This document shows, piece by piece, positions 4,988 to 39,448 of a stretch of DNA of 40,288 bases. Under the pieces are notes generated by a model. That model worked only from the letters and a program-made list of their open reading frames with translations. It searched no databases and had not been told where the DNA came from. The stretch lies in sequence record SRR20825006_1153. One strand, 5' to 3'. The translations under genes and the position numbers were made by a program. Numbering within the stretch: the first letter of the stretch is position 1; every line of letters starts with the position of its first letter.

Positions 4988-5002
4988 TATTCTTCCCTTA
5001 TG

Positions 5003-19310: not shown

Positions 19311-19320
19311 CCCGAATGAC

Positions 19321-19350: not shown

Positions 19351-19373
19351 CACTTCAACGCTGGCCTCAGGTA

Positions 19374-22913: not shown

Positions 22914-23060
22914 CGGCAGATGTTGCATTCCCCGCCTATCCGCAGTGGCACATTATGCCCTCAGCCAACTTTTCTACAAAACGTCTATCGAGCAAAATTC
23001 TATATTTTATCTATATAAATCAATACTTTATATATTTTAAAAATTGGCACACCGTTTGCA
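22914..23060 (+). promoter_or_regulatory. flagellin promoter: ftr-like sites, IHF site, sigma54 -24/-12
   Basis: CGGCAGATGTTGCAT (22914), TGGCACATTATGCCC (22945), IHF consensus AATCAATACTTTA (23018-23030) and TTGGCACACCGTTTGCA (23044-23060). Confidence 0.8.
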
Positions 23061-24059: not shown

Positions 24060-25253
24060 TTACTCTGTAAGCCCCAAAGTTTGCTTGAGAGCAGCAACTA
24101 CCCTATCCACATCACTGTCGCTCATTCCCGGGAAAATTGGCAAACTCAGCACCGCTTCATAATAGCGCTCTGCCCCCGGAAAGTCCGGCTCTCCGCATAA
24201 CTCTCGATAGTAAGGTTGCCACGGGACCGGCACATAGTGCACCTGCGTTCCCACACCGTGCCCATGCAAGCTTCGCATAAGCTCGGCGCGACTTATCCCG
24301 ACCGCTTTAAAGTCAATCAAAACCGGATATAAATGCCAAGCCGACGCCGCAAGCGATGTACGCTGCACAGGCTTCAACGCATTGGAAAGCCCAGTAAGCG
24401 CCGCATCGTAACGATCGGCAATTTCTGCCCTACGCCGCACGAACCCACCCAACTTACCAAGCTGGCTGAGGCCTAGCGCGCACTGCATATCGGTCGCCCG
24501 GTAATTATAGGCCAGCTCGTGCATTTCATAATACCAGGGGTTTGGCTCGCCATCTGGTGCAAAACCACTGGGCATTTTCCAGTCCTCAGGGTCGCGCCGC
24601 ATATCGTGGCCACGCAAATTCCTCAGGCGTTTCGCAATCGAAGCGTCATTTGTCGTCACGACACCGCCTTCACCCATCGCTATCGACTTGACCGGATGGA
24701 GCGAGAAGCAAGCAAAGTCTTCATACTGCCCGTCACCCGGACCGCCGCCGCCCGCATACTGCGCCCCCAAAGCATGGCAACAGTCCGTTATGACCTTGAG
24801 AAAATGTTTCTGAATAATGCCGTCAAGTCTAGGCATCTCCACGCACTGCCCATTCAAGTGAACAGGCATAACGGCCACAGCGTTTTCGCACCTTGAAAGT
24901 GCCGCTATCAATGTCTCTGCAGTTAGGAGGCCTGTATCGGGGCAGACATCGGCGAAAATCACATCCGCGCCAGCCATGCGCACCGCGTTAGCTGTCGACA
25001 GAAAGGTTACTGCCGGGACGATAACCTGATCTCCAGGGCCAATCCCGGCTGCGATCACCGCAAGATGCAGGGCCGTGGTGCCGTTAGAGCAAACCACGGC
25101 ATGTTTTGCTCCAGTCACGCGGGAAAAAGCGTTTTCAAACTCATCAACCTTTGGCCCGCCAGTCAAAACACCGTGGCGCAACACATCGACTACCGCTGCG
25201 ATGTCGTCTTCATCGATTTGATGGCGTCCATAGGGAAGAAATTTGCCAGACAT
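24060..25253 (-). CDS. pseC: UDP-4-amino-4,6-dideoxy-N-acetyl-altrosamine transaminase (PseC/FlmB, DegT family)
   Basis: LPYGRHQIDEDDI.AV..VL, SNGTTALHLA, FSLHPVKSI..GEGG (PLP Lys), WYYEMHEL.YNYR.TD.QCALG.SQ and QVHY.PV..QPYY; downstream of pseB. Confidence 0.92.
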   Translation of the reverse strand: MSGKFLPYGRHQIDEDDIAAVVDVLRHGVLTGGPKVDEFENAFSRVTGAKHAVVCSNGTTALHLAVIAAGIGPGDQVIVPAVTFLSTANAVRMAGADVIFADVCPDTGLLTAETLIAALSRCENAVAVMPVHLNGQCVEMPRLDGIIQKHFLKVITDCCHALGAQYAGGGGPGDGQYEDFACFSLHPVKSIAMGEGGVVTTNDASIAKRLRNLRGHDMRRDPEDWKMPSGFAPDGEPNPWYYEMHELAYNYRATDMQCALGLSQLGKLGGFVRRRAEIADRYDAALTGLSNALKPVQRTSLAASAWHLYPVLIDFKAVGISRAELMRSLHGHGVGTQVHYVPVPWQPYYRELCGEPDFPGAERYYEAVLSLPIFPGMSDSDVDRVVAALKQTLGLTE

Positions 25254-25262
25254 CTTTGTCTT

Positions 25263-26300
25263 CTATTCGCCTTCCTCAGGGATTTTGGTCAAAATTTCCC
25301 TAAGAGCCTCCACACCAAGCCAATCGTCATTTTTGTCGCTCGAATACTCGAAGCCTTCAGGCATGCCTTCGTGGCCTTCATCAAGAAGGTCTTCCCGTTT
25401 CCAAAAATGCCATTCCGGCTCAATCACGTAGCGGTCGCCCAAGTCAATCGTGCTCTTGGCGTTATGTTCGGTGATCATGATCTCATGAAGTTTTTCACCC
25501 GGGCGAATACCAACGTGCTTTATCGCCATGCCAGGCGCGAGTGCCTCGATCAAATCCGGTATGCGCATGGAGGGTATTTTTGGAACGAATATTTCTCCGC
25601 CACGCATAATCGGGAAACACGACATGGTGAAATTCACGGCTTCTTCAAGTGTGATCCAAAAACGGGTCATGCGCTCATCCGTTACAGGAAGCTCCGTCGC
25701 GCCCTTTTTGAGAAGTGCCCGAAAGAACGGTATCACACTGCCTCTTGAGCCAAGAACGTTCCCGTACCTGACCACTGCAAAGCGGGTGCCCGTGCCTGAA
25801 GCGAGCGAGTTGGCAGCCACAAAAATCTTGTCGGATGCTAGCTTGCTGGCACCATAAAGGTTGATCGGGTTCACGGCCTTATCGGTTGAAAGCGCAATGA
25901 CCTGCTTCACCCCTGCCTGGATCGAAGCCTGAACAACATTCTCTGCGCCAATCACGTTGGTGCGAATACACTCAAACGGGTTATATTCCGCGAGCGGAAC
26001 CTGCTTTTGTGCAGCAGCATGCACCACGATATCCACCCCACGCATCGCCATAACCAGTCGATCACGGTCCCGGATATCACCAATAAAAAAGCGGACCTTT
26101 TTTTGCTCGGCTTCAGTCAGTGTATTTTGGAGCAAAAAGTGATTTAGCTCTCCGCGCGCAAACACGATAATCTTACGCGGGTTGTGGTCGTCCAACAGTC
26201 GACGCATCAGGGTCTTGCCAAACGAGCCAGTCCCCCCAGTGATGAGGATAGACTTACCTTCAAAGTCGGCCGATGATCCCCCAAACCCTGTAAAAGACAT
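25263..26300 (-). CDS. pseB: UDP-GlcNAc 4,6-dehydratase (inverting) PseB/FlmA
   Basis: ITGGTGSFG, RFFIGDIRD, HAAA.KQVP.AEYNPFECI.TN, STDKA.NPINLYGASK, VRYGNVLGSRGSV and GIRPGEKLHE. ATG 26300 follows AGGAGA. Confidence 0.93.
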   Translation of the reverse strand: MSFTGFGGSSADFEGKSILITGGTGSFGKTLMRRLLDDHNPRKIIVFARGELNHFLLQNTLTEAEQKKVRFFIGDIRDRDRLVMAMRGVDIVVHAAAQKQVPLAEYNPFECIRTNVIGAENVVQASIQAGVKQVIALSTDKAVNPINLYGASKLASDKIFVAANSLASGTGTRFAVVRYGNVLGSRGSVIPFFRALLKKGATELPVTDERMTRFWITLEEAVNFTMSCFPIMRGGEIFVPKIPSMRIPDLIEALAPGMAIKHVGIRPGEKLHEIMITEHNAKSTIDLGDRYVIEPEWHFWKREDLLDEGHEGMPEGFEYSSDKNDDWLGVEALREILTKIPEEGE

Positions 26301-26383
26301 ATGGTATCTCCCTGAGCCCAAATTTGCTTTATCCACAGAAACTTAGCACCCACCATGCGCTAACAAAAGAACTTCTTTGCCTC

Positions 26384-28381
26384 TTATTCGGCAACTTGCC
26401 GTATGGAGACTTTATATCGAAATTTGGGTGCCGCTATATTTTCTGCCATGCTCAGCGCCTTGCGCGATGACGTTTCATCTGACTCCCTTACGCTGATTGC
26501 GGCACGCACAAAATAGCTGTCGCGCACAGCGCTAGACGTTATCAGCCCAACACCGGCCGCGTCGCACCGGTCCATCTCAAGCGCTACTACGTGCCGATTG
26601 TCCCCAATGTAAAGCGTCCCTCCGGTCATACCGAGTCCGGTCGTGGCCGACACCAGCCGGGATACCGCTCGCCCATGATCCAACGACAATAGAACGCCAT
26701 CGTTAGACAACGCATGTCTTTGCTGGGAACGTCCGCCATTCTCGCACTCGAAAAACAGATGTCGCACGTCAAACACAAGGGGGTTTAACGTAACAAAGCC
26801 CAGCCTTACCGCGCCCGGCAACGGCATAAGCCAATCATGGATATATTCAACAGCCAGACTACAATCCTGCGGATCGAAAAGGAGTTGTTTGTCAACAGGC
26901 CCCAGCGAGGTTGCTATCGTTGCATGGATTTCCACCTGCCCTGCCTGATTGACAGAAACTTCAGGCTCGCATTTTACAAGATCGGTTACCTTGTGGCTGT
27001 CATGAGGTTCATAGACAAAATGTCCGCTATAAAAATCAGCCCCAAAAGCAATGTCGTCATAAAACCCGTGTGCCAAGGTGCCAATCGGGCTTGTCGTGCC
27101 CGGCGCGCCTGCTTCCTGCGGCAGTAATGGCCCGAACCCCATTGCCTGAATAGCCAGCCCCCGTGAGGTATTGAGCACTAGATGGCACGCTCCTGCTTCA
27201 ATTTCCAACCACCGTCCGCGCCTTTCGAACTTAGGCTCAGACGCAAAGGGCCGCTTCCGTTCGCTTTCTTTGGGCGCCGCTTTGATGACACCATTTTTGG
27301 GCAACCGCTGTTGCAGATCCAGCCATCTGGCTTCCGTGATGTGTGTCCTGTAATCACTTGACCAGAACTCGCACAGGTTTCTCCAGCGCTCTGGCTCCGT
27401 TACGCCAGCATCAACCAAGCCTCGGAATATTCGCCAGCAGTGAGTGTTAAGCGCAAGGTCGTTACGGCCCGTCACTGCCCAGCGTAATACATTGTATTTG
27501 CGTTGCTTTTTTACTGGCACTGGTGCAGCCGCACTCTCCAGCTGAATTGGGGCCCTATCGGGCTGAAGGAATTTAAGCGCATCGCGAGGAAGCCCTAGGG
27601 TCACCCCCCCACTGTCCCTGAGAGCCCTCAGCAACAAACCGATACGTTCGTACTCACTCATGCCATCAATCGATGCTTCACTCTCAAACCGGCCAGGTCG
27701 GAAATCAAATATTTCTGCGTCGCTGGTATAAAGCGGCATGGCCCGCATACCTTTGCTGAGCTGCAGCACCAGAAATTCCATATATTCTGCTGCCGAAAGT
27801 TCACCATGTGCAAAGCGTTGAAACTTCTGGAAGGAGATAACGTCTGACCACACAACAGGAATGGTTGTACCCTCCGCCCCCACCAGGGTTTGTGGTTCAA
27901 GCGCATATTCTTTTCGCCAGTCGCTGTGATGGCTGGCAGGCTCTGCCCAGTCCATAATCAGGGCTTCAAAGCCAGCCGCTTTATATATCGGCACCAGCCC
28001 CGGCGAATAGGCTTGTTCGTTCACCAAGGCTATCATTGGCCTTATGCCAAAGGTCTCTTCAAAATCCTCCTGGCCGAGTTTGAGGTTCCACTCGTTAATC
28101 TCTGGCGGTACAAGGGGGCCAATAAGTTGAACATATCCGCTGCCAATGAACTCGATCTGCCCGGCGTCCAAAAGAGCTCTAGCCTCATCCACCCACGTCG
28201 GGTCAATCTCCCGGATGGCGCGCAGCGTGTAACTTGTCATCTCAAGGCCTATGGGGAAACCTTGCCGCGCAAGCCTGAGCAGCGGCCAATAACACTTCTG
28301 CACAACAACCGCGCGCTGCTCTACCTCAATGGAGGAAAATGCCAAATTCAGATGAAACGCTGTATATAGCGTTGGCTTCAA
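26384..28381 (-). CDS. GH57-like (beta/alpha)7 carbohydrate-active protein
   Basis: N-terminal FHLNL, CYWPLL, SG/Y-T-L segment, GQIEFIGSGY.Q.I.PL, NEQAYS (nucleophile-like Glu), SDAEIF (acid/base-like Asp) and WSSD; C-terminal beta-sandwich. Confidence 0.65.
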   Translation of the reverse strand: MKPTLYTAFHLNLAFSSIEVEQRAVVVQKCYWPLLRLARQGFPIGLEMTSYTLRAIREIDPTWVDEARALLDAGQIEFIGSGYVQLIGPLVPPEINEWNLKLGQEDFEETFGIRPMIALVNEQAYSPGLVPIYKAAGFEALIMDWAEPASHHSDWRKEYALEPQTLVGAEGTTIPVVWSDVISFQKFQRFAHGELSAAEYMEFLVLQLSKGMRAMPLYTSDAEIFDFRPGRFESEASIDGMSEYERIGLLLRALRDSGGVTLGLPRDALKFLQPDRAPIQLESAAAPVPVKKQRKYNVLRWAVTGRNDLALNTHCWRIFRGLVDAGVTEPERWRNLCEFWSSDYRTHITEARWLDLQQRLPKNGVIKAAPKESERKRPFASEPKFERRGRWLEIEAGACHLVLNTSRGLAIQAMGFGPLLPQEAGAPGTTSPIGTLAHGFYDDIAFGADFYSGHFVYEPHDSHKVTDLVKCEPEVSVNQAGQVEIHATIATSLGPVDKQLLFDPQDCSLAVEYIHDWLMPLPGAVRLGFVTLNPLVFDVRHLFFECENGGRSQQRHALSNDGVLLSLDHGRAVSRLVSATTGLGMTGGTLYIGDNRHVVALEMDRCDAAGVGLITSSAVRDSYFVRAAISVRESDETSSRKALSMAENIAAPKFRYKVSIRQVAE

Positions 28382-28538
28382 TTGCTCACTCCAATGCGTT
28401 CCGCACCCGAAACATATATTTCAAATTACCACCGCCCTATCAAGACAATGGTACATTTATTGCTTTCATCGACACAACTGATAAGCTCGTACCAAGTTAA
28501 ACCTAAGCCATTGTATTGCAAGCAGGACTACACAAGAC

Positions 28539-29288
28539 ATGCTTACCTCTTTTTCGCTGGCAGGAAAAGTCGCCTTGATAACCGGGTCCTCACGGGGGAT
28601 CGGCGCGGCCGTTGCAGAAGCTGTGTTTCAGGCTGGCGGTTCCCCCATTATCACCTACCACCAAAACCGGGATGCGGCTGATCTGGTAGCCAAAAAATGC
28701 GGTGATGCTGCAGTTCTGCAGTTTGATGCTTCCGATGAAGCAAGCGCGGCACAACTGGCCGCCGATGCTATAGGCGTATGTGGCAAGGTTGATATTCTGG
28801 TGAACAATGCTGGCATTCTGGAGCAAAAACCCTATCAGGATATTACCCCATCCGAATGGGACATCATGTTCGAGACCAACCTGAAAACGCCCTTTTTCCT
28901 GGTTCAGGCGCTCGCGCCCCATTTCATAGAGCGAGGCCAGGGCTCGATCATCAACATGAGTTCGGTTGGCGGGCAATTTGGTGGCCCCAAAGCACCCCAT
29001 TATGCAGCAAGCAAAGGCGCACTGCTGACCTTGACAAAGTCGCTCTGTCGCTTGCTGTCCCCACACGGGGTGAGAGTAAACGCACTGGCACCCGGTTTTA
29101 TTGAGACGGACATGATGAAACACATGGCAAGCAAGACCGACAGGCAGGCCATGATCGACCAGGTGCCCATAGGGCGCATCGGAACACCGGAAGACGTGGC
29201 ACATGCCGCCGTATTCCTCGCATCCGACGCCGCGTCTTTCATCACCGGGCAAGTTATCAACGTGAACGGCGGACAATATTTAGGATAA
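28539..29288 (+). CDS. classical SDR oxidoreductase (FabG-like)
   Basis: TGSSRGIG, NNAG, SS, YAASK and PG..ETDM motifs. Confidence 0.92.
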   Translation: MLTSFSLAGKVALITGSSRGIGAAVAEAVFQAGGSPIITYHQNRDAADLVAKKCGDAAVLQFDASDEASAAQLAADAIGVCGKVDILVNNAGILEQKPYQDITPSEWDIMFETNLKTPFFLVQALAPHFIERGQGSIINMSSVGGQFGGPKAPHYAASKGALLTLTKSLCRLLSPHGVRVNALAPGFIETDMMKHMASKTDRQAMIDQVPIGRIGTPEDVAHAAVFLASDAASFITGQVINVNGGQYLG

Positions 29289-29292
29289 AACC

Positions 29293-31059
29293 ATGAGCAC
29301 AATGTTAGCTGACATTCGCGACCCCAAAGACGTGCAAGACCTAGACGGGGGTGGCCTCAATGCGCTCGCGGCTGATGTCCGGTCGTTTCTTCTCCGTAAC
29401 ATCAGCGCGACAGGCGGGCATATCGGCGCCAATCTGGGCACGATTGAGCTTACCATCGCGATGCACGCCTGTTTCCGCTCACCCGACGTGCCGTTTCTGT
29501 TCGACACGGGCCATCAGGGGTATACTCACAAGCTGCTCACCGGCCGGGCGCATTTGTTTCCAAGCTTGAACAAATATGACGGTATGAGCCGCTTCCTCAC
29601 TCATTTGGAAAGCCAGCATGACCCAATTGAGGCGTCACACGCGGGCACCGCGATCTCTGTGGGTCTCGGCATGGCGCTCTCGCGCAAGCTACGCGGTAAC
29701 GAGGACCATGTAGTCGCTGTGGTAGGCGATTCCGCGCTTGTCGAAGGCGCGTCACTTGAGGCGTTGAACCACGCGGCGGTTGAAGATACTAACCTTGTGG
29801 TGATCGTGAACGACAACGGTTTTGCCATCAGCCCCGGTTTTGGCGCGGTACATGAAGCGCTGCAATCTGGCGACGGCAAGGCCAAAGCCCTGTTCGAAAG
29901 CCTTGGCTGCACCTATATCGGACCAGTAGACGGGCACAATATAGCGGAGATGACCAAAGCCCTCGATGAAGCCAAGCAGGCTAAATCGCTGCCTGTCGTG
30001 CACGCAAAAACAGTCAAAGGAAATGGCTGGGCACCGGCGGACAACCACCCGTTCCGCCTGCATTTCTCATTCCCGTTTGACCCGGAAACAGGGGCACCAA
30101 CAGGCAACAGCGCGCCGCAGAAAACCTATCCGGATTATGCCGCACAAGCGCTTGAGCGTAGGATGGACAGCGACGACAAGATCACCTGTATCACGCCATC
30201 AACCATCTATGCTACCGGGCTTGCGGGCATCTTCTCCAAGTATCCGGACAGATGTTTCGACCCCGGAATGGAAGAGCAACACGCGCTGACCATGACGGTT
30301 GGCATGGCACTTGACGGCGCGAAACCGGTTATCGCCTACCAGTCTACCTTCCTGCAGCGAGCGTTCGACCAGATCATCCACGATGTGTGCTTTATGAACG
30401 TGCCAACGCTTATACTCTCGGCCCGCAGCGGTTTCAGCGGTTACGATAACCCAACTCACCACGGGATATATGATATCGCCTTCCTGCGCTCCATCCCGAA
30501 CCTCAGGGTCTTCTACCCGAAAGACGGGCCTGAGTTGCAAACCATGATTGACGTGGCGCTTGATGAACTAAGCGGGCCAACGCTGATCATGATGCCCTAT
30601 GGCCCGGTGCATGATTTTGGTTTGAGTTCATCCACAGATAAAGCTGGCATCCTCAAACCGGAGGTATTTGGCGACGGGGACGATATGGTCATGATCACCG
30701 TCGGCAACAAATTTGCCGCTGCGCGCGAAGTGCAGGGACATCTGGACGCCAAGGGTCTGCGCACAAGGCTTGTGAATATCAGGCAGATAAAACCCCTGCC
30801 TGAACAAGAACTTATGCGGCTCATTGGAAATACGCGCAAGGTTGCCGTGATCGAAGAAGCGGTGCTTGATGGCGGCCTTGGCTCCCAGATCGGCACCATG
30901 CTTCTGGAGAATGGTTATCCGGGTGAATTCCTCCGCCACGGCCTGCCTTGCAAATTTATTGAGCCCGGCTCAAACGAAGAGCTTGAGGACATCTACAAGC
31001 TCGACGGCAAAGGTCTCGTTGAGACGATGCGCACCAAATGGCTGTCACTAAACCTCTGA
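29293..31059 (+). CDS. DXP-synthase-like ThDP-dependent enzyme (divergent paralog)
   Basis: GGHIGANLGTIELTIA, DTGHQGYTHKLLTGR, GDSAL.EG..LEALN...NDN, GPVDGH, EEQHA, STFLQRAFDQ..HD and THHG. Confidence 0.85.
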   Translation: MSTMLADIRDPKDVQDLDGGGLNALAADVRSFLLRNISATGGHIGANLGTIELTIAMHACFRSPDVPFLFDTGHQGYTHKLLTGRAHLFPSLNKYDGMSRFLTHLESQHDPIEASHAGTAISVGLGMALSRKLRGNEDHVVAVVGDSALVEGASLEALNHAAVEDTNLVVIVNDNGFAISPGFGAVHEALQSGDGKAKALFESLGCTYIGPVDGHNIAEMTKALDEAKQAKSLPVVHAKTVKGNGWAPADNHPFRLHFSFPFDPETGAPTGNSAPQKTYPDYAAQALERRMDSDDKITCITPSTIYATGLAGIFSKYPDRCFDPGMEEQHALTMTVGMALDGAKPVIAYQSTFLQRAFDQIIHDVCFMNVPTLILSARSGFSGYDNPTHHGIYDIAFLRSIPNLRVFYPKDGPELQTMIDVALDELSGPTLIMMPYGPVHDFGLSSSTDKAGILKPEVFGDGDDMVMITVGNKFAAAREVQGHLDAKGLRTRLVNIRQIKPLPEQELMRLIGNTRKVAVIEEAVLDGGLGSQIGTMLLENGYPGEFLRHGLPCKFIEPGSNEELEDIYKLDGKGLVETMRTKWLSLNL

Positions 31060-31075
31060 AAATAAAGACACTTCA

Positions 31076-32083
31076 TTGGAAAACTCGCCTCACACAACAA
31101 AGCCTTATATCGCGTCCATCGGCACTGGGCGCGGCCAAAGGCGACTGATTGAAGCGGCGAAACAGGCCGGATTTGCGGTGCTGGGGATCGACCAGGCACC
31201 CGACGCGAGCCTATGCGACGCCACCCTCAGGGTAAGCACCTATGATGCGGAAAAAGCGGTCGAAGCAGCACTGGAATGGCAGAAAAAAAACCATAAAATA
31301 CAACATGTTATGGCTAGAACATCGGGCCCTGCGAACATTACGGCAGCGAAACTAGCAAGCGCCCTAAATGTTCCCGGACAGGGGGATGATTTGGCAGAAG
31401 CAGCGCTCTCGAAACTTTCTCTTTATAAACAATGTGTTGACGAGAACGTCCCGACGATTGAAAGCGAACAACTTTCGCCAAGTGTGGCGCCAAGCCTTTC
31501 CCTCCCCTTGATTATCAAGCCAGATCAACCGCTTAGGGGTAAGGAGCACGTATTTCTGATCCGTGAGCCGGAGGAGATAAGCGCCGCAGCCCAACAGGCA
31601 TGCAACGCATCCATCAACGGCATGTATATCGCGCAACCTCTTGTAAGCGGGGAGGAATTTGGCGTTTCCGTCGCCGCGAGAGACGGCAAAATGCTGTGGC
31701 ACGCCTATTATACCGAGCATGTTGAAACCGACGAGAATGGCCGTTTTATCGGGAAAGGTGTGGCGGGCCCACGGCCCAATGTGTGCGCGGATGTGCGGCG
31801 TATGTGTGGCGCGAGTGTGGCGCAGCTTTTGGCGCGTTGGAACACCACAGGCTTTGTCTTTTTTTCTTTTCGGATCAATGAGTTGAACATACCTCTCCTC
31901 TTTGAAGTTAACCCCGGACTGTGTGGCGACCAAATTGTGGATGAATTATTTCCCGCCATGTGGCCCGGCACTGACTTTTTTTACCTTGAAATAGCACTAC
32001 TCACCGGCGCTGAATGCACCTTCCCGAAAACCGAAGGTTTGGCCTCGGCCGTCAGGACAAAGTCGGGCGGAGAAGTGCCGTGA
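31076..32083 (+). CDS. ATP-grasp ligase 1
   Basis: IGTG.GQ..LI..AK..G..V..ID, PLIIKPD, Q..V.G.EF and LFEVNP.L.GD; TTG start. Confidence 0.75.
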   Translation: MENSPHTTKPYIASIGTGRGQRRLIEAAKQAGFAVLGIDQAPDASLCDATLRVSTYDAEKAVEAALEWQKKNHKIQHVMARTSGPANITAAKLASALNVPGQGDDLAEAALSKLSLYKQCVDENVPTIESEQLSPSVAPSLSLPLIIKPDQPLRGKEHVFLIREPEEISAAAQQACNASINGMYIAQPLVSGEEFGVSVAARDGKMLWHAYYTEHVETDENGRFIGKGVAGPRPNVCADVRRMCGASVAQLLARWNTTGFVFFSFRINELNIPLLFEVNPGLCGDQIVDELFPAMWPGTDFFYLEIALLTGAECTFPKTEGLASAVRTKSGGEVP

Positions 32084-33258
32084 AAACAAAAGCCATTATC
32101 CAGATCGGCGGTTCGGTCCTGCAGCGCCACACCACGGCATGGGCACAGGATGCAGGCCTGCAAGTCCTGCTAACCGACAGCACACCAGATCCTTACCTCA
32201 AGGATGCAGCAGATGCGTTTTGCCAAACAGATGGCACTGACGGTGAAGCAATCCTCAAGCATGCTCATATTTGGCGTGAGCAGTATGATATCATCGCGGT
32301 CTATGCGGGGGGCGATTTTGGCCTGAAGTCTGCCGCATATGTCGCGAAAGCACTTGGCCTACCACATTGCAGCCCCGATGCCGTTGACGCCAGCCTCAGC
32401 AAAGATATTGCGCTCAGGATATTTGAAGGTGCCGGGCTGACCGTGCCCAAGCGGGTTGAGGAAGAAAACGCAGCCGCCCACCTGCCCGTTATCGTGAAAC
32501 CGAAAGACAGCAGCGGCAGCCGCGGCGTTACCTTTGTGAAGCAGGCAATTGAGCTTGCGCCAGCCCTCGCCCACGCGAAACGATATTCGATCGACATTAT
32601 TATTGAGCATTGGGTAGATGGCCGCCACATAGACGTAAATGGCATTCTCTGGCACGGCGAGTTTTATGGCTGCGAGATCATCGAGCGCTTCTTCTCACCG
32701 CTTCCGCTCCGCTATCCCACTGGCATGATCACACCGCCGAAGGGCTTGAGCAGCGTTGAGCGCGAGAAGATATATGCCACGCTCGCAAGTGCTGCCAAAG
32801 CTGCGGGCATCACCCAAGGCCCGGTCAAGGGCGATTTCATCATGACAAACGATGATATCGTTATACTTGAAATAGCGCCGCGCTTTCACGGTGAAACCAA
32901 TACCTATTCGGCACCACTGGCCTATAACACCTGCTCGGCGCGGGACTATATGGTCACGCTTGGCACCGGGCGCGCGCCATCACCTCAGCCCTACGCAGCA
33001 CCCGAGCAAGTCGCGGGCTGGGTTGCTATTTTCCCGGAGAGCACGGGCATGTTGAAGCAGGTTATTGGCACACACGAAGCCCTTGCCCTGCCCGGCATTG
33101 CCGATATTGTCATCCGTCGCGAGCCGGGTTTTAAGGTCAGCGCCATACAGGATAATACGGCTGTGATCGGCTTTATTTATGGCCAGGCTAACGACCATGA
33201 AACGCTTGACCACCTGCTCGATCAGGCACGAGAAACCATAACTGTTGAGATGGAATAA
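32080..33258 (+). CDS. ATP-grasp ligase 2 (L-amino-acid-ligase-like C-terminus)
   Basis: IGGSVLQ, PVIVKPKDSSGSRGV, IIE..V.G, GPVKGDF and ILEIAPRFHG. GTG 32080 overlaps the previous stop (GTGA). Confidence 0.85.
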   Translation: MKTKAIIQIGGSVLQRHTTAWAQDAGLQVLLTDSTPDPYLKDAADAFCQTDGTDGEAILKHAHIWREQYDIIAVYAGGDFGLKSAAYVAKALGLPHCSPDAVDASLSKDIALRIFEGAGLTVPKRVEEENAAAHLPVIVKPKDSSGSRGVTFVKQAIELAPALAHAKRYSIDIIIEHWVDGRHIDVNGILWHGEFYGCEIIERFFSPLPLRYPTGMITPPKGLSSVEREKIYATLASAAKAAGITQGPVKGDFIMTNDDIVILEIAPRFHGETNTYSAPLAYNTCSARDYMVTLGTGRAPSPQPYAAPEQVAGWVAIFPESTGMLKQVIGTHEALALPGIADIVIRREPGFKVSAIQDNTAVIGFIYGQANDHETLDHLLDQARETITVEME

Positions 33259-33263
33259 CCACG

Positions 33264-34487
33264 ATGCCCAACCCCCAAAAGCGCCTTCTTGTGCTTGGTG
33301 CCAGCCAGGATCAGGCTTTCATGATCAATACCGCCAAAGCCATGGGCATTAACACGCTTGCGGTTGACATGAACCCGAATGCGCCCGCGTTTGCGTTCGC
33401 CGATGACTTCGCCGTGGTATCCACGCGCGATACAAAAGCCCTGAAGGCGTTTCTGGATGACTATACACAGGAAAAACCCGTGCACGGGGTTGCAACCATG
33501 GGCAGCGATATCCCCCACATTGTAGCCGAGATTGCCGAGCATCTGGGCACATGGCATATCAGCCATGAAACAGCAAAGCTCGCCACCAACAAATTTGCCA
33601 TGAAAGAGGCCTTCAAGCGCGGCGGTGTGCGCATCCCTGACTACCGGCTTGTGGGCAGCGCCCGCGAGGTTCATGACGCTTTTGACGAGTACGGCAAACT
33701 GGTGATCAAACCGTTGAGTGAAGCTGGGTCGCGAGGGGTGAGCTTGATAACAGACACAAAAGATATTGCTGAACTGTTTGACCGCGCCTTCGCTTACGCG
33801 ATTGACGGCAAAGTGCTGGTTGAGAGTTTCCTTGAAGGGCCCCAGATATCGACTGAAAGCCTGATGGTGAACGGCCATATCCATACCCCCGGCTATGCAG
33901 ATCGCAACTATGATGTGCTGGAACGCTTCCTACCGCAGATTATGGAAAACGGGGGCGTGCAGCCAAGCGACCATCAGGACGCTTTTGACGATGTGGAAGC
34001 CATGCTACTGAAAGCCGCCAAATCCATTGGCCTTGATCATGGCGTGATGAAAGGCGATGTAGTGCTCACGAAAGACGGCCCTGCGCTCATTGAAGTGGCA
34101 GCGCGCCTTTCCGGCGGGGACTTCTGCGAGAGCCTTGTGCCCCTCGGCACCGGTGTGAATTATGTGCGCAACGTTATTCGCATGGCGCTGGGCGAAGATG
34201 TTGTGCTGGACGAGCTTGCCCCCACCATGAACAGGGCTGTTTCAAACCGGTATTTTTTTGCGGAGCCCGGCCGGTTTCACTCGGTTGAAGGGCTTGAGGA
34301 GGTTACCGCCAAAGACTGGATCAGCAAATTTGAGATCTGGTACAAACCCGGCGATCTCTTGCCGGAAACACGAAGCCATGGCCAACGCTTTGGTGTTTTT
34401 GTGCTGACGGCAGATGACCGGGAAACCGCTATCGCGCGGGAAAAATGGGTCTATGACACCGTGAAGATCAGGATTGACCCGGTTTAG
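33264..34487 (+). CDS. ATP-grasp ligase 3
   Basis: LVLGASQDQ, TNKFAMK, VIKP...AGSRGV, LVESFLEGPQISTE, GVMKGD and IEVAARLSGG. Confidence 0.88.
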   Translation: MPNPQKRLLVLGASQDQAFMINTAKAMGINTLAVDMNPNAPAFAFADDFAVVSTRDTKALKAFLDDYTQEKPVHGVATMGSDIPHIVAEIAEHLGTWHISHETAKLATNKFAMKEAFKRGGVRIPDYRLVGSAREVHDAFDEYGKLVIKPLSEAGSRGVSLITDTKDIAELFDRAFAYAIDGKVLVESFLEGPQISTESLMVNGHIHTPGYADRNYDVLERFLPQIMENGGVQPSDHQDAFDDVEAMLLKAAKSIGLDHGVMKGDVVLTKDGPALIEVAARLSGGDFCESLVPLGTGVNYVRNVIRMALGEDVVLDELAPTMNRAVSNRYFFAEPGRFHSVEGLEEVTAKDWISKFEIWYKPGDLLPETRSHGQRFGVFVLTADDRETAIAREKWVYDTVKIRIDPV

Positions 34488-36229
34488 GCAGCCAGTTGCT
34501 TGCGCACAAACTCAACCAGTTGCGCACCGCGTTCACCACCAACAAAGGACGATGTGTCAACGGAGGGTTTCCAGCCCGTGGCTAAACGCGCAACAGCTTC
34601 GGGCAACTCATCTTCACCGTCCACCGCCAGCGCAAGGCCCGAGGCGGCAAAAGTCTGCCATGCCTCTTTCTGCAGGGCATGAATCGGATCAAATACCACT
34701 GTAGGCAAGCCCGCCGCTACACATTCAAAAAAGCTCATGCCAAAAAGCGTGACGGCACCGTCGTACTGGTGAAGGCGGCTTGAAAGATTGTCCGGCGCGT
34801 TTAGCACAGACCATCTGCCTTTGTGTTCCAGCGCATCCAGCTTTGGCGCAGCCGCGCGTGGGCCCTGCACCCACTCAATCTCGACCCCTTTGGGCACATT
34901 GGCGTCCAACACGCCAGGCAACCAGTCACCTGCGCCTGAGACATCCGTACTACCAGTAAGCACAACAATCTTCTGCACCGCACCGTCATCATTTGTTCTG
35001 CGCCGGATATTGGGCAGCAGGTAACAGTCCCACCCGTAAACAAGATTGCCGTTTCGCCTTTCAAGCCAACGATCAGGCACATAAAAGGACGGTACATAAT
35101 ATCCGTCAAAACCATCAACCTCGACCATGCGGTCAAAGCCCAACACCTTGACGTTCATATCGCGGCATTCAGCCAATACACCCTCAAGGCCGTCAGGCTC
35201 AGAAGAGAAGTCCGCGAATACAAGATCAGGCTTCAGGCTTGCGAGTTTCTCACACACCTGTACCTCGCTCCAGTCATCCTGCCAAATGCTGTCAAAAAAC
35301 TGCAGGTCCACAACGCCCGTGTGCTGCCCGATAATGAGAAAGGATACCTTGGCGGCCATACGGTCGCGCAGTATCTCGCCCGCCGTGCGGCAGCGGGACA
35401 GGTGCCCAAGGCCAACACCCTCGCGGCAGTCCACCAGCATGCAGACATGTTTGGAACTTTCCCGCATATCTTTCTGGTATACATGAGCGTTTATAGCCCT
35501 CAAGGCCGGGTCGGCATGCAACTGGTCCATCACCCATTTGAGATCAACGATCTCATCATGGCTGTGGCTTTGATACCAATCGTCATACACCCGCTTCATA
35601 AAAGCATAATCCGCTGGCGTATCTACAGAGATACGATGCTTGAGCGTTGAAAAGAAGGGGTCATCCGGCACGCTGGCAACAGCGCGCGGGCCTACTTTAC
35701 CAAGCCTGCCGTACACCACACCCACATGTTCACGCTCAAACGGCTCTATGCTGGCCTCAACAATCGCATCCCAGAACTGGCGACTATAAACCGCAAAACC
35801 TTCATGGATAGTTTCCCCGCCCACAGCATCAAGGTCAAGTTTTGCAACATCCTTGTCACCGCCGTCCGCAACAGCCGCAATCATGTTATGCAGCGTGGTG
35901 GGCTCGATCAGCGGGCAGTCGCCGCAGATATAACAGACCACATCGGGGTTATGCTGTTTTACGGCGGCATCTACGCGGCCAACCAGATCGTTCACGTCCC
36001 CGTCATAGGCGCAGACATAATATCCGGCCCTGCCCGCCTCGCTAACCAGCGGCGCATTATAATCATCAGACGTTGTGGCAAGAAGGAGCCTGGCTTCAGG
36101 CCATGCTGTTTCAAGCCGGGGTTTCAGCCGCGCAATCAGACTTTCCCCCGCCAGATCCAGCAGGTGTTTACCCGGCAGCCTGCTTGAGTTCAGACGCGCA
36201 CCAACAATGATCAGGACTGAGGGTGCCAT
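34484..36229 (-). CDS. fused cytidylyltransferase (SpsF/PseF-like) + SpsG/PseG-like GT-B domain
   Basis: ARLNSSRLPGK, GD.ND...R, ICGDCPLI, REHV and RISVDTPADY (CTP_transf_3); then GVGLGHLSRC, V.LTGS.D and G.SFFECVAAGLP (PseG/SpsG). Confidence 0.85.
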   Translation of the reverse strand: MAPSVLIIVGARLNSSRLPGKHLLDLAGESLIARLKPRLETAWPEARLLLATTSDDYNAPLVSEAGRAGYYVCAYDGDVNDLVGRVDAAVKQHNPDVVCYICGDCPLIEPTTLHNMIAAVADGGDKDVAKLDLDAVGGETIHEGFAVYSRQFWDAIVEASIEPFEREHVGVVYGRLGKVGPRAVASVPDDPFFSTLKHRISVDTPADYAFMKRVYDDWYQSHSHDEIVDLKWVMDQLHADPALRAINAHVYQKDMRESSKHVCMLVDCREGVGLGHLSRCRTAGEILRDRMAAKVSFLIIGQHTGVVDLQFFDSIWQDDWSEVQVCEKLASLKPDLVFADFSSEPDGLEGVLAECRDMNVKVLGFDRMVEVDGFDGYYVPSFYVPDRWLERRNGNLVYGWDCYLLPNIRRRTNDDGAVQKIVVLTGSTDVSGAGDWLPGVLDANVPKGVEIEWVQGPRAAAPKLDALEHKGRWSVLNAPDNLSSRLHQYDGAVTLFGMSFFECVAAGLPTVVFDPIHALQKEAWQTFAASGLALAVDGEDELPEAVARLATGWKPSVDTSSFVGGERGAQLVEFVRKQLAA

Positions 36230-37074
36230 GTTTTCCTCACATGCAGGAAAGGACGCAGGCCGTCAGACGGATCCGCGCGCCATTCCCGGTCTGTCTCTTC
36301 CGCAGGTGTTGGTGTCTTGATGCCGTTGCCGTCGGCGATATAAGCCTGATGGCATTCGGTGATCACCGGCTCGATCTCTTCCGGCAACCAACAGTGGCCG
36401 GTCTGGTATTCCGCCCCTTGTTCATCAAGGTCGATATGAAACTCAACTGTTGTGGCACCCCAGCGGCTGACAGCACGGCGCACCACTGCGGGGTTTCGTG
36501 AATGGTCGGACCAGCCAACGGGCACCCCGAACGCGTTTCGGATCGTCTCAATCGCAGCGAGATTACAGTTCTCAAACGGCGTGGGATAGCCCGATATGCA
36601 GTGCAGCAACGTGAGATTTTTTCCTCCCGCCGCATTAAAAACACACACGGCTGCGCCGATCTCATCCAGCGTGGCCATGCCGGTAGACAGCACGAGCGGC
36701 TTGCCTGTGCGTGCGCATTCCGCGATCAGGTCATGCCACGGCAGCTCATAGGATGCGACCTTGTAGAAATCCACATAAGGTTCCAGCTCTTCCACCGCCT
36801 TGAGATAAAACGGTGTACAGCAGAACTCCGCCTGCCTGTCGTGACAGGCGCTTGCGAGCTCAGGCAGGAACTCAAGCGGCAACTCCCACTCACGCCGGGC
36901 GCGGTGGGTTGCGCTGCGCTCCAGTATTTCAGGTGAGAAAAGCTCATCGATCTTGAAAAGCTGAAATTTCACCGCGCCACAACCAATGGCAACGGAGCGG
37001 TTGATAAACTCGACGCAGCGGTCCATATCCCGCGCATGGTTGCTTGAAACTTCCGAGATAAAAAGCGGCTGCAT
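36211..37074 (-). CDS. NeuB/PseI/SpsE-family nonulosonate synthase lacking the C-terminal AFL/SAF domain
   Basis: FISEVSSNH, AVKFQ, CTPF, YKVASYE, LSTGMAT, LLHCISGYP, GWSDH and VEFH; about 287 aa. Alternative TTG start at 37083. Confidence 0.9.
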   Translation of the reverse strand: MQPLFISEVSSNHARDMDRCVEFINRSVAIGCGAVKFQLFKIDELFSPEILERSATHRARREWELPLEFLPELASACHDRQAEFCCTPFYLKAVEELEPYVDFYKVASYELPWHDLIAECARTGKPLVLSTGMATLDEIGAAVCVFNAAGGKNLTLLHCISGYPTPFENCNLAAIETIRNAFGVPVGWSDHSRNPAVVRRAVSRWGATTVEFHIDLDEQGAEYQTGHCWLPEEIEPVITECHQAYIADGNGIKTPTPAEETDREWRADPSDGLRPFLHVRKTWHPQS

Positions 37075-37100
37075 ATCAACCAACCCTTCTGTTGTTGATG

Positions 37101-38864
37101 TTACGCCTTGCCATGCTTGGCCACCCGGTCTTTGAGCGCGGCAGCAACATCAGCCACGTTCCGTTTCCAGTCCTTATCAGGGAAACGCGGGAAATACCGG
37201 CCTTTTGGTGCCCAGGGTATGCCCTCGTCGGCTCCAAAGCTCCACCACGGTTTATAAAGCGTGAGCCACCAGACCGGCCGGTTGATCGAGGCTGCAAACA
37301 CCTGTGTGGACATGGCTGGGCCGATCACCAGATCAAGATGTTCCATGATCGAGAGGTTGGCATCGATATCCGCCTTCAGGTTCACATCCTCAAACCGGTG
37401 TAACTTGATGCCAGTGCGGCTCGTGAATTCCTCAACCTGTTTGCTCACATCGCTATATTGCATATTCACAAACTGGACACCGGGAACCGACAGAATAGGC
37501 AAGAGATCATCGAGCTTTAGGTAACCAAACTGCCGCGCAGCGCTTACAGTACCGCTTTGCCACGTAACCCCCACTTTCAAGCCGGGCCCGAGCGCTTCAA
37601 TGCGGTCGCGCCACTCATTGCTTTTCGCAGGGTCCGCCCCCAGATAGCCCTTATCAGGGAATTTGACGTCTGACGTTTGATGCCAGAAGTGCTGGAGAAT
37701 TGTCGCAAACGGCATGGCATAGTCCACGTGCAACTCGCCACGTTTTATCTTGCCCTCAACTTCCGGGAAAGCGCGGTAACGGTAGCCTTGCAGCATGCCA
37801 TCTCTATAGGCTGTAACAATGGCATCCGGGAACGCACGTTGATAAATTTTCACCAAGCGGTGATCCACGCCAATGACAAGTTGTTTGCAATGCTTCTCGA
37901 TTTCACGCAGGCCCAAGCCGAACATGACCTCGTCACCAATGCCCTGCTCACATGCCGCAAGAACCACTTTATCCTTGAGTGAGCTTTGGCCATCCCACTC
38001 CGGCAACCGATGCGTATAAGTTATCTGCTGCGTTTGCACCCGGCGCGAGCTGAGGCGCGACTTATAATACTTCCAAGCCTCCTCAAGGCGACCGTTCCGG
38101 AATAGATACATAGAACTGGCGATCTGGACTTCAGGGTCCAAAGGCTCGACCTCAAGAGCACGAACCAGATATTGCTGCGCTACATCCTGATCAGCAATTG
38201 CTCCTGCCAGATTACATAAAACCTTGTGATTTTTAGGGTCCAGGCGCAGGGCCTCTTCATAAAAGACGATAGAAGCTTCCTTGCCGTCCCTGTATTTCAC
38301 CGACGTGGCAAGCACATTCCACATATCGGCACTATCTGGGAACATAGGCAACATCTGCTGCGCCATCTCGATCGTTTGATCATATTTTTCCTGCCGGTTC
38401 AAAGCGGTGAAGAGGTTAATATAATGCTTGATTGTCTTCGGATCCATCGCCACCAACTGGTGCCCCAATTTCTCTGCTATCTCATGGAACCCCATGTCCA
38501 GCGCCAGATTCTGGATTACAGAACAGACATCCGGCGTTGGCTTGTGATAGTGGAGCGCACGCTCAAGAACGTAAATGGCTTGTTCACGCACACCAAGCTG
38601 TGTGAGAGCATGTGCCAGAATCGTGAGGATATTGATATCCTCAGGCAAGGCCTCCCAGGCTTTCAGCAGTTCCGTCACCGCCTCGGGCCACTCTTGGTTG
38701 GCGGCGTGTTGCTGCCCCTTTTTCAGGGCGACCTTAACCTCCTTGATCGAGAGGTTTGTATCCGCCAGGCCTGCCTTCTGCGCCTTGGACACGGCTTTGC
38801 CGCGAGCGCCAGCAGCCTTCGCTTGCGTGCTGCCATTGCGCGCTTTTCTTTTGGTTGCTGCCAA
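37101..38864 (-). CDS. flmG: FlmG-like flagellin O-glycosyltransferase (TPR + GT-B)
   Basis: N-terminal TPRs, then EAWKYY..R, W.G.SSLK.K.VL...EQGIGDE.MF, VG.TW.SG, FVNMQY and LDLVIGP; divergent from flbT-flaF as in Caulobacter. TTG 38864 follows GGGAGGA. Confidence 0.8.
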   Translation of the reverse strand: MAATKRKARNGSTQAKAAGARGKAVSKAQKAGLADTNLSIKEVKVALKKGQQHAANQEWPEAVTELLKAWEALPEDINILTILAHALTQLGVREQAIYVLERALHYHKPTPDVCSVIQNLALDMGFHEIAEKLGHQLVAMDPKTIKHYINLFTALNRQEKYDQTIEMAQQMLPMFPDSADMWNVLATSVKYRDGKEASIVFYEEALRLDPKNHKVLCNLAGAIADQDVAQQYLVRALEVEPLDPEVQIASSMYLFRNGRLEEAWKYYKSRLSSRRVQTQQITYTHRLPEWDGQSSLKDKVVLAACEQGIGDEVMFGLGLREIEKHCKQLVIGVDHRLVKIYQRAFPDAIVTAYRDGMLQGYRYRAFPEVEGKIKRGELHVDYAMPFATILQHFWHQTSDVKFPDKGYLGADPAKSNEWRDRIEALGPGLKVGVTWQSGTVSAARQFGYLKLDDLLPILSVPGVQFVNMQYSDVSKQVEEFTSRTGIKLHRFEDVNLKADIDANLSIMEHLDLVIGPAMSTQVFAASINRPVWWLTLYKPWWSFGADEGIPWAPKGRYFPRFPDKDWKRNVADVAAALKDRVAKHGKA

Positions 38865-38930: not shown

Positions 38931-38947
38931 TGCAAGGGGGGTGCCAA
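38931..38947 (-). promoter_or_regulatory. sigma54 promoter of the flmG-neuB-spsFG operon
   Basis: Minus strand TTGGCACCCCCCTTGCA, consensus TGGCAC-N5-TTGC. Confidence 0.8.
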
Positions 38948-39055: not shown

Positions 39056-39448
39056 ATGGCGCTGAAGCTTTCATTGAAGCCCGACGAGCGGCTGGTGATA
39101 AATGGCGCAGTAATTGCAAATGCCGACAGGCGGACGACTTTGATCGTTCACAACAAGGCGTCGATCCTGCGTGAAAAAGACATCATGCAGGAAGAAAACG
39201 TCGATACCCCGGCTAAACGGATCTATTTTCCGATTATGTTAATGTATATGGGGCAAGGTGACACAGATAACTACTATGAGGAGTTTGTCCTGCGCATGAC
39301 TGAGTTCATGAATGCGATTAGCACTCCGGCGGCGATAGATAACTGTGTTAAAATAAGCCGCGATGTGATGGACCGGAACTATTACAAGGCACTCATCACC
39401 TGTAAAAAGCTGATCGCGTTTGAACAGGAACGCCTTGGGGGACAGTGA
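39056..39448 (+). CDS. flbT: flagellin translational regulator FlbT
   Basis: MALKLSLKP.ER.VINGAVI.N.DRR....V.NKASILREKDIMQ.E..DTPAKRIYFP.MLMY and YYKAL..C.KLI.FE. Confidence 0.95.
   Translation: MALKLSLKPDERLVINGAVIANADRRTTLIVHNKASILREKDIMQEENVDTPAKRIYFPIMLMYMGQGDTDNYYEEFVLRMTEFMNAISTPAAIDNCVKISRDVMDRNYYKALITCKKLIAFEQERLGGQ

Follow-up and report, generated by a model that had tools for sequence, protein, structure and literature searches.

A flagellin glycosylation island lies between two flagellin genes in the 40,288-nt stretch of DNA analyzed here (sequence record SRR20825006_1153, hereafter the window), and its gene content points to the synthesis of a tailored, pseudaminic-acid-like nonulosonate. 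The closest named homologs of the window's proteins are those of Kordiimonas, a marine alphaproteobacterium. The window corresponds to the minus strand of a complete, single-contig genome of 4.18 Mb; one base, at window position 2107, is unlike the genome sequence. Its left half is a flagellar block encoding MotB-like and CheZ-like proteins, FliM, FliL, FlgF, FlgG, FlgA, FlgH, FliX, FlgI, and a rod-binding protein, and two further flagellin genes follow in the genome beyond the one that starts at 40154, outside the window.

On the minus strand of the island, a gene for a protein resembling glycoside hydrolase family 57 (GH57-like) is followed in transcription order by pseB and pseC, with intergenic gaps of 47 and 9 nt (Table 1). 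An operon on the plus strand holds, in this order, genes for a short-chain dehydrogenase/reductase (SDR), a thiamine diphosphate (ThDP) enzyme resembling 1-deoxy-D-xylulose-5-phosphate synthase (DXS), and the ATP-grasp ligases ag1, ag2, and ag3; the start of ag2 may be later than annotated, its longest open reading frame overlapping ag1 by 70 nt. A further minus-strand operon, read from flmG, runs through neuB to a gene fusing a cytidylyltransferase with a PseG-like domain. A preliminary description of the window, made from its sequence alone, had named PseB, PseC, the PseG-like domain, NeuB, the cytidylyltransferase, an FlmG-like transferase, and six accessory genes, and Pfam and NCBIfam scans located all of them at the positions given there. 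It had also set the accessory genes in the middle of the biosynthetic core; the GH57-like gene is not placed there but heads the pseB–pseC operon.

Table 1. Genes and promoter-like motifs of the island and its flanks (window coordinates)
Feature	Position	Strand	Supporting match or remark
Sigma-54-like -24/-12 motif TGGCAC-N5-TTGC	23045..23059	+	61 nt upstream of flagellin
Flagellin, 276 aa	23120..23950	+	Flagellin_N E 3.9e-30, Flagellin_C E 1.5e-15
PseC aminotransferase (UDP-4-amino-4,6-dideoxy-AltNAc transaminase)	24060..25253	-	TIGR03588 448.2 bits, cut-off 423.5
PseB, inverting UDP-GlcNAc 4,6-dehydratase	25263..26336	-	TIGR03589 493.5 bits, cut-off 407.75
GH57-like protein, 665 aa	26384..28381	-	PF03065 54.4 bits
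Sigma-54-like motif TGGTAC-N5-TTGC	28449..28463	+	76 nt upstream of SDR-DXS-ATP-grasp operon
Classical SDR reductase, 249 aa	28539..29288	+	adh_short_C2 E 4e-65
DXS-like ThDP enzyme, 588 aa	29293..31059	+	TIGR00204 509 bits, cut-off 466
ATP-grasp ligase ag1, 335 aa, lacking LAL_C2	31076..32083	+	ATP-grasp_3 23.6 bits (borderline Pfam match)
ATP-grasp ligase ag2, L-amino-acid-ligase type	32014..33258	+	LAL_C2 E 3e-12, ATP-grasp_3 E 3e-10
ATP-grasp ligase ag3, 407 aa, L-amino-acid-ligase type	33264..34487	+	LAL_C2 E 9e-15; 4DIM and BL00235 matches
Cytidylyltransferase + PseG-like GT-B fusion, 581 aa	34484..36229	-	CTP_transf_3 60.3 bits, TIGR03590 23 bits
NeuB-family nonulosonate synthase, SAF-less, 290 aa (SfmA type)	36211..37083	-	NeuB domain only
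FlmG-like flagellin glycosyltransferase, 587 aa from TTG	37101..38864	-	TPR families, residues 55-290
Sigma-54-like motif TGGCAC-N5-TTGC	38932..38946	-	Upstream of flmG-neuB-fusion operon
flbT, regulator of flagellin synthesis	39056..39448	+	FlbT E 7.6e-45
flaF, regulator of flagellin synthesis	39475..39894	+	FlaF E 1.5e-33
Next flagellin, first 135 nt in window (275 aa in genome)	40154..40288	+	Continues past window end

Relationship to the Shewanella sfm locus

The island is closely related in content to the Shewanella flagellin modification (sfm) locus of Shewanella oneidensis MR-1. There, sfmABCDE (SO_3261-3265), which have SO_3269-3271 as neighbors, encode a 290-aa NeuB, a 581-aa thiamine pyrophosphate enzyme, a 255-aa SDR, a 395-aa methyltransferase, and a 412-aa ATP-grasp protein, and normal modification of the flagellin depends on all five genes (PMC3765264). 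The passages of that paper on the locus report PseB and PseC as present and clear orthologs of PseH, PseG, PseI, and PseF as lacking. They describe the glycan as a 274-Da mono-N-acetyl nonulosonate on serine, with a nitrogen-free outer unit of 236 Da plus up to two O-methyl groups (236-264 Da) (PMC3765264). The cytidylyltransferase SO_3269 is much larger than canonical ones, and the product has been called an atypical pseudaminic acid derivative (10.1101/2023.12.03.569772).

Both the island and this locus have PseB and PseC, lack PseH, and are linked to flagellin genes; both also encode a ThDP enzyme and an SDR, along with a NeuB of about 290 aa that has no SAF domain, an ATP-grasp of the L-amino-acid-ligase type (about 410 aa), and a cytidylyltransferase about 580 aa long. 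Judged by sequence, ag3 is the counterpart of the SfmE-type ligase. The island differs in its ThDP enzyme, which is DXS-like instead of resembling acetolactate synthase (ALS-like), in its two extra ATP-grasps, and in its sigma-54-like promoter motifs, the site reported for sfm being of the sigma-28 type. The proposal in the preliminary description that the genes form a new pathway is therefore not borne out: the set is homologous to sfmABCDE, published in 2013, and has relatives in hundreds of species.

Based on a survey of 101 genomes of the Shewanella genus, short NeuB orthologs 57-65% identical to that of the window occur in 22, and a GH57-like gene is found in exactly the same 22, on the same contig and 5.7-10.2 kb from the short neuB. 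Three loci were fetched from this genus. In one of them (L192), genes for NeuB (286 aa), an ALS-like enzyme (581 aa), an SDR (255 aa), a methyltransferase (404 aa), and an ATP-grasp (408 aa) are followed by those for a GH57-like protein (640 aa, 39% identical to the window's), a cytidylyltransferase fusion (584 aa, 34%), and PseC. The other two (L191 and L193) also hold pseB; one of these keeps the L192 order, and in the other the ALS-like enzyme is replaced by a split transketolase. Across the three, identity to the window's proteins is 39-41% for the GH57-like protein, 32-35% for the fusion (568-584 aa), 36-40% for the SDR, and 36-37% between ag3 and the 407-409-aa ATP-grasps. Over the Shewanella genus, ALS-like, split-transketolase, and DXS-like ThDP forms all occur in such loci. 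A further likeness is that the GH57-like gene adjoins the ATP-grasp gene in the Shewanella-genus loci. From these findings, the conserved set also includes the GH57-like gene and the fused cytidylyltransferase. Neither source mentions the GH57-like gene in its passages on sfm (PMC3765264; 10.1101/2023.12.03.569772), and the word "hydrolase" is absent from the preprint.

Distribution of the module

A GH57-like profile scan of one genome per species, archaea included, gave 529 places, and the best 80 loci were examined by tblastn with the window proteins. An ag3-like ligase is encoded in 71 of the 80, in 55 of them on the same strand within 400 nt, and an SDR homolog in 60. The counts are 46 loci for short NeuB (at least 45% identity) and likewise for PseC, 39 for a flagellin, 38 for PseB, and 20 for an FlmG-like gene. 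As their ThDP enzyme, 36 loci encode a split transketolase, 11 an ALS-like form, three a DXS-like form, and two both a transketolase and a DXS-like form; none was detected in the other 28, nine of which offer less than 3 kb of flanking sequence upstream. In four loci from Kordiimonas (L025, L031, L032, and L034), the ATP-grasp and the GH57-like gene are kept, and no ThDP or SDR match was obtained. A recurrent order by Pfam domains, namely aminotransferase, short NeuB, cytidylyltransferase, PseG-like, SDR, ThDP enzyme, ATP-grasp, and GH57-like, was seen in Terriglobales, Methanothrix, Rhizomicrobium, and another Kordiimonas, often with methyltransferases added.

Since three unrelated ThDP architectures fill the same slot, we infer non-orthologous displacement, and the pathway evidently needs a ThDP-bound two-carbon carbanion and not one given enzyme. 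The GH57-like gene, earlier taken for an optional accessory, turned out to be the most constant member of the module. The neighborhood search that the preliminary description had suggested shows the cassette genes recurring with short NeuB, PseB, PseC, and cytidylyltransferase across many phyla, and these comparative data support its view of the island as one functional unit for a flagellin nonulosonate.

All six accessory genes (ag1, ag2, SDR, DXS-like, ag3, and GH57-like) occur together in a metagenome-assembled genome of Thermodesulfobacteriota and in another of Omnitrophota. The five genes of the plus-strand operon were found together in 15 of 78 loci from a DXS-like profile, Shewanella waksmanii and S. 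insulae included. Among the GH57-like loci, the DXS subtype is rarer than the transketolase subtype. A scan with an ALS-like profile returned housekeeping acetolactate synthases in nearly every case, and module loci in two of 80.

Among 31 other genomes of the same genus, a single one (G012) has an ortholog of ag1, and it carries the whole island in the same order, with 73-97% protein identity. At this chromosomal position, most of the other Kordiimonas loci examined represent the split-transketolase subtype and have one ATP-grasp. The ag3 protein shares 50-56% identity with ligases from DXS-type clusters in distant taxa, Magnetospirillum aberrantis and Marinibaculum pumilum among them, and only 26-39% with the ligases of other Kordiimonas, whereas the island's GH57-like protein, PseB, PseC, and flagellin are closest to Kordiimonas. 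Because of this difference in affinity, the SDR-DXS-ag1-ag2-ag3 operon looks like a cassette that has been exchanged as a unit. In Kordiimonas marina, a split transketolase and a DXS-like gene stand in one island (locus L024, 2116-8559) together with Fe-type and Zn-type alcohol dehydrogenases and two methyltransferases, which represents a further subtype of the module.

Absence of PseH and divergence of the core enzymes

In common with the canonical pathway to CMP-pseudaminic acid, the island has PseB and PseC, both above their equivalog cut-offs, besides a synthase of the NeuB family, a cytidylyltransferase, and a domain that weakly resembles PseG. It departs from that pathway in the lack of PseH, in a synthase that is SAF-less and below the PseI cut-off, in the PseF-PseG fusion, and in the six extra genes. 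The pseB gene is single-copy in the genome, the next match being 23% identical. The cytidylyltransferase domain (residues 7-194) passes as PseF at the level of the domain, its CTP_transf_3 match (E 3e-16) lying well above the cut-off of 22.6 bits. The match of the C-terminal half of the fusion to TIGR03590 is weak when set against the PseG cut-off of 153.55 bits; this half is colinear with a stand-alone GT28_C PseG-like protein (23% identity, E 0.026), with which it has a GLGH..RC motif in common. The island NeuB reaches 162 bits on the PseI model TIGR03586 (cut-off 340) and 168 bits on the NeuB model (cut-off 400). A Pfam scan found no SAF domain in it, and it is 30% identical to the bona fide PseI encoded elsewhere in the genome.

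The preliminary description had noted that the island lacks PseH. This is confirmed, there being no GNAT among the island genes, and extends to the complete genome, in which nothing exceeded the 93.1-bit cut-off of the PseH model TIGR03585. The top match, at 32.6 bits, is a RimI-like GNAT encoded beside a MopJ-like gene, distant from the island. In a comparison of 61 genomes (this one and 60 relatives), PseH scored over the cut-off in four, none of which has a GH57-like match (0/4), and in none of the 30 GH57-like-positive genomes (0/30). Within the genus, five genomes are GH57-like-negative, and three of these give the top sub-threshold PseH-like scores (90, 71.5, and 68.5 bits); one incomplete genome combines a 59-bit PseH-like match with a GH57-like gene. 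As these genomes are related, the complementarity is a pattern and not a statistic.

The DXS-like enzyme and the ATP-grasp ligases

The DXS-like protein has the domain order of 1-deoxy-D-xylulose-5-phosphate synthase and exceeds the cut-off of the corresponding model, but it is only 33% identical to the product of the genome's housekeeping dxs (C1:264663-266513), lacks both the RYPRG motif and a long loop, and has another genomic context. In all six full-length members of its clade that were aligned (6/6), RYPRG gives way to M/F/Y-P-Y-G/E and some 40 aa of a loop are missing; the motif position reads MMPYG in the window protein and LFPYG, LYPYE, or AMPYG in four other full-length members, which are from other species. 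Assuming that the second Arg of RYPRG binds the phosphate of glyceraldehyde-3-phosphate, the acceptor of this enzyme would be something other than glyceraldehyde-3-phosphate. Genes of the clade adjoin SDR and ATP-grasp genes in nonulosonate clusters; DXS matches at 33-39% identity without that context look like housekeeping DXS. On this evidence the island protein is a paralog, not the housekeeping enzyme.

In ag1, an ATP-grasp core was found, but no LAL_C2 domain. A profile of its family (13 homologs) matched the ag3 family over 312 columns (hhalign 99.9%, E 9.5e-36) and the structures 4DIM (E 4.5e-17) and 3VOT (E 3.1e-16), and on these grounds ag1, ag2, and ag3 are all ATP-grasp enzymes. A single-protein scan of genome contigs gave no relatives of ag1, whereas whole-genome searches and profile scans did. 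The three share the ATP-grasp fold with 4DIM and with L-amino acid ligases such as BL00235 (3VOT) and BacD, and ag2 and ag3 also share LAL_C2. Unlike in those ligases, the nucleophile here is probably a sugar amine instead of an amino acid, and ag1 lacks the C-terminal domain.

The GH57-like protein

The GH57-like family comprises more than 2845 proteins, and members from different phyla are about 45% identical. An AlphaFold2 model of the window protein has a mean pLDDT (per-residue confidence) of 86 and a pTM (predicted template modeling score) of 0.89. In a Foldseek search of the PDB with this model, all matches listed were GH38 alpha-mannosidases or GH57 enzymes, with E values down to 2.5e-18, and a separate Atlas model again gave the GH38/GH57 architecture. 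Two residues, E122 and D221, are invariant in 15 of 15 aligned sequences; the positions that correspond to them in the Thermococcus litoralis 4-alpha-glucanotransferase (1K1W) are E123 and D214, its nucleophile and acid/base, respectively. The modeled fold agrees with the (beta/alpha)7 barrel of GH57. The protein is thus like 1K1W and the GH38 alpha-mannosidases in fold over its full length and in the positions of the catalytic Glu and Asp. It differs from them in sequence, identity being only about 12%, and in context, which is nonulosonate synthesis and not glucan metabolism.

From its sequence and model, the protein looks like a working retaining glycosidase or transglycosylase, and its genomic context argues for a substrate other than alpha-glucans. 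Candidate roles are the freeing of a bulky sugar from UDP, the handling of a sugar-containing appendage, or editing. No GH57-like fusions longer than 1165 aa were found, which is weak evidence, and a literature search returned no paper linking GH57 with flagellin and pseudaminic acid.

The FlmG-like transferase and regulation of the island

The longest open reading frame of the FlmG-like gene runs to 38915. Its probable start is the TTG at 38864, which is preceded by a Shine-Dalgarno sequence, GGGAGGA, and which agrees with the end coordinate in the preliminary description. Compared by architecture and not by alignment, the protein resembles FlmG of Caulobacter crescentus in its length of about 590-600 aa (published value about 596), its N-terminal TPR region, and its C-terminal GT-B-like part (PMC7591256). 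By language-model features alone, the C-terminal part resembles GT9 clusters (score 0.96). The setting, an alphaproteobacterial flagellar locus with flbT, flaF, and several flagellins, is also alike, the difference being that neuB and not flmH follows flmG in the island.

Late flagellar genes of Caulobacter use sigma-54 promoters. In the window, the exact pattern TGGYAC-N5-TTGC occurs three times where 0.25 would be expected, a number reached in none of 100 shuffles. No such motif was found before the GH57-pseB-pseC operon. With one mismatch allowed, the motif is not enriched (11 against 6.9 expected); among such sites are those at 15420-15434 (+), upstream of flgF, and at 40066-40080 (+), upstream of the next flagellin. 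Sigma-70 promoter-like and terminator-like sites are no more frequent in the window than in shuffles. Since sigma-54-like motifs precede both the accessory operon and the flagellin gene, the operon appears to be part of the flagellin regulon.

A second FlmG paralog, 34% identical, is encoded in a second nonulosonate locus outside the window (L005, C1:1634000-1653900). That locus also encodes the bona fide PseI (445 bits), a PseG-like protein, a cytidylyltransferase, a PylC-like ATP-grasp, a glucuronyl-C5-epimerase-like protein, a 1091-aa GT4 protein, a WbqC-like protein, a radical SAM enzyme, and a DegT aminotransferase. Neither PseB nor a GNAT was found in it, and, pseB being single-copy, L005 probably depends on the pseB of the window. 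The genome has at least nine flagellin-like coding stretches at six places; four belong to the window or adjoin it, and further ones are located near C1:955828, 2397229, 2986029-2988436, and 3032570. The many flagellins and the two FlmG paralogs hint at two separate flagellin glycosylation systems.

A proposed route to the flagellin sugar

We consider it likely, on the evidence of gene content and context, that the island encodes an sfm-type pathway of the DXS subtype, producing a tailored pseudaminic-acid-like nonulosonate and wired to an FlmG-class transferase and the sigma-54 flagellar regulon. PseB and PseC, whose family membership is clear from the scans, would make UDP-4-amino-4,6-dideoxy-L-AltNAc. 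Not acetylated by PseH, the 4-amine of this sugar would be either left free or acylated by an ATP-grasp ligase; acylation by ag3 we regard as an even chance. The DXS-like enzyme might transfer a C2 unit, obtained by decarboxylation of pyruvate, to an acceptor that is not phosphorylated, so as to build, together with the SDR, an acid or other appendage, and ag1 and ag2 could extend it or attach further amide-linked pieces. It is conceivable that the GH57-like enzyme, co-transcribed with pseB and pseC, performs glycosidic-bond chemistry on the sugar nucleotide or on the appendage. The PseG-like domain would then free the sugar, the SAF-less NeuB would condense it with phosphoenolpyruvate, and the cytidylyltransferase domain would yield the CMP-sugar, to be moved by FlmG to Ser/Thr residues of the flagellins in the cytoplasm.

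The suggestion that the ATP-grasp and the ThDP/SDR pair stand in place of the acetyl step agrees with the comparative data, the relatives with a good PseH being those free of the GH57-like module. The one-acetyl, 274-Da core of Shewanella fits a PseH-less pathway. The product of the window should differ from that of Shewanella because the island has no methyltransferase, two more ligases, and another ThDP enzyme. We are more doubtful of the full scheme in which ATP-driven amide ligation replaces PseH, the donor comes from the ThDP carboligase and the reductase, three ligases in series build an oligo-amide, and a GH57 enzyme has been recruited from glucan metabolism onto a nucleotide-activated amino sugar; this combination is possible but rather improbable. 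To our knowledge, no reaction of this type on a nucleotide-activated amino sugar is known for GH57.

Several observations weigh against the amide-based route, and published genetics and mass spectra are an imperfect fit to a simple form of the scheme of carboligation, reduction, and amide formation, perhaps with amino acids added, that the preliminary description had put forward. In S. oneidensis, deletions of sfmA-sfmD abolish the mass shift, whereas deletion of the ATP-grasp gene sfmE leaves part of it (PMC3765264); a ThDP enzyme and an SDR that merely feed the ligase would not predict this partial retention. The outer unit of 236-264 Da is readily lost in the ion source, and the 274-Da core acts as if a basic group were kept (PMC3765264), so that an O-linked appendage fits at least as well as an amide. 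The proposed route explains no definite role of the GH57-like enzyme. A Pfam scan found no methyltransferase domain in any island gene, while sfm has SfmD, and no Maf (PF01973) was found in the genome, while the Shewanella reference locus uses Maf. The co-occurrence counts come from related genomes and overstate independence. Finally, the PseH step is redundant in Caulobacter, where the phenotype of the other mutants is not reproduced by a triple acetyltransferase mutant (PMC7591256); for this reason, and because the genomes compared are related, the missing PseH is supporting and not decisive.

What is the nature of the outer unit? Computed from the formulae in Table 4 of the Shewanella study (PMC3765264), it is C9H16O7, with a free form, C9H18O8, that has one degree of unsaturation. 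A single degree of unsaturation leaves either an acyclic polyhydroxy acid, which could be amide-linked, or a cyclic, carboxyl-less, sugar-like unit, which would be O-linked; C9H16O7 fits a polyhydroxy acid, a deoxy-nonose, a methylated octulose, or a hexosyl-glycerol. The loss in the ion source and the sfmE phenotype lean to an O-linked unit, and the tight pairing of the ATP-grasp with the module leans to an amide-linked acid.

Alternative explanations

These same data bear on an alternative in which the product of the ThDP enzyme and the SDR is a neutral sugar, two-carbon-branched or chain-extended, which the GH57-like protein, as a retaining transglycosylase, O-links to a nonulosonate with a free 7-amine, the ATP-grasps adding smaller decorations later. 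A ThDP enzyme and a reductase are paired within nucleotide-sugar tailoring in YerE/YerF of yersiniose biosynthesis, which is an analogy only. Such a route would account for a nitrogen-free outer unit that is easily lost in the source from a core with a basic group, for a formula that allows one ring or one carboxyl but not both, and for the loss of all modification in sfmB, sfmC, and sfmD mutants where the sfmE mutant keeps part (PMC3765264). It would also give work to the conserved catalytic Glu and Asp within a full GH38/GH57 glycosidase architecture, and to three interchangeable ThDP architectures that each move a C2 unit onto a carbonyl. Yet genes that would supply a nucleotide-sugar donor of a second sugar are absent from the window island, and the known activity of GH57 enzymes is on alpha-glucans, not in transfers of this kind. 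No gene is in closer linkage with the GH57-like one than the ATP-grasp (71 of 80 loci), which is odd for a late decoration, and the four Kordiimonas loci mentioned above have the ATP-grasp and the GH57-like gene with no ThDP or SDR match. We think it unlikely, with roughly one chance in a handful of being right.

If, on the other hand, an unrecognized acetyltransferase elsewhere in the genome served the island, its product could be ordinary Pse5Ac7Ac and the SDR, DXS-like, ATP-grasp, and GH57-like genes an unrelated metabolic cluster. The redundancy of the PseH step in Caulobacter, the generic GNATs of the genome (of which the best has the 32.6-bit score given above), and the bona fide PseI of the second locus would permit this. 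Such a reading is very improbable when set against a cassette that keeps short NeuB, PseB, PseC, and cytidylyltransferase as neighbors across many phyla, the 22/22 phyletic match of short NeuB and GH57-like genes in the Shewanella genus, a sigma-54-like motif before the accessory operon as before the flagellin gene, an island synthase below the curated PseI cut-off, and the loss of flagellin modification in the published sfm mutants (PMC3765264). Nor do we give any real credence to the DXS-like gene as a genuine second 1-deoxy-D-xylulose-5-phosphate synthase for isoprenoid or vitamin supply, with the ATP-grasps making a free dipeptide-like metabolite. Its score on TIGR00204 and the L-amino-acid-ligase C-terminal domain of ag2 and ag3 are what such a function would lead one to expect; however, the genome has its housekeeping dxs elsewhere, the clade has lost RYPRG and the loop and sits in nonulosonate clusters beside SDR and ATP-grasp genes, and a split transketolase or an ALS-like enzyme fills its slot in other genomes. 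An sfm-type pathway for a tailored nonulosonate is the reading that we retain.

Other genes of the window

Outside the island, a minus-strand group at 4517-6590 encodes an enzyme of the MbnB/TglH/ChrH family (DUF692), a DUF2063 protein, and a DoxX membrane protein; it is of a kind linked with ribosomally synthesized and modified peptides or with stress and is unrelated to the flagellar genes. A 1012-aa protein with weak TPR matches only is encoded at 7131-10169 (-), directly upstream of the MotB-like gene. Between flgH and dksA, a 125-aa open reading frame at 18976-19353 (-) matches positions 225-323 of the 324 of Meth_synt_2; corresponding to the last 100 residues of cobalamin-independent methionine synthase, it may be a gene remnant.

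Implications

In genetic terms, the sfm operon has been known since 2013 and FlmG since 2020. In the literature searched, we found no description of a DXS subtype with three ATP-grasps or of its pairing with FlmG. Listings for nonulosonic acid with transketolase and ATP-grasp gave nothing relevant beyond the Shewanella paper, and those for deoxy-xylulose with pseudaminic acid gave only papers that, by title and abstract, seem unrelated.

Flagellin nonulosonates affect filament assembly, phage attachment, and immune recognition, with the side chains as the part that is variable and antigenic. The sfm-type module that would build such side chains has hitherto been known only genetically and from one Shewanella strain. 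The genus to which this genome belongs offers a natural comparison, as its close relatives have the transketolase subtype in this chromosomal position, whereas this genome and one other have the DXS subtype with three ligases. In addition, the module could supply new amide-forming and carbon-carbon-bond-forming enzymes for glyco-engineering.

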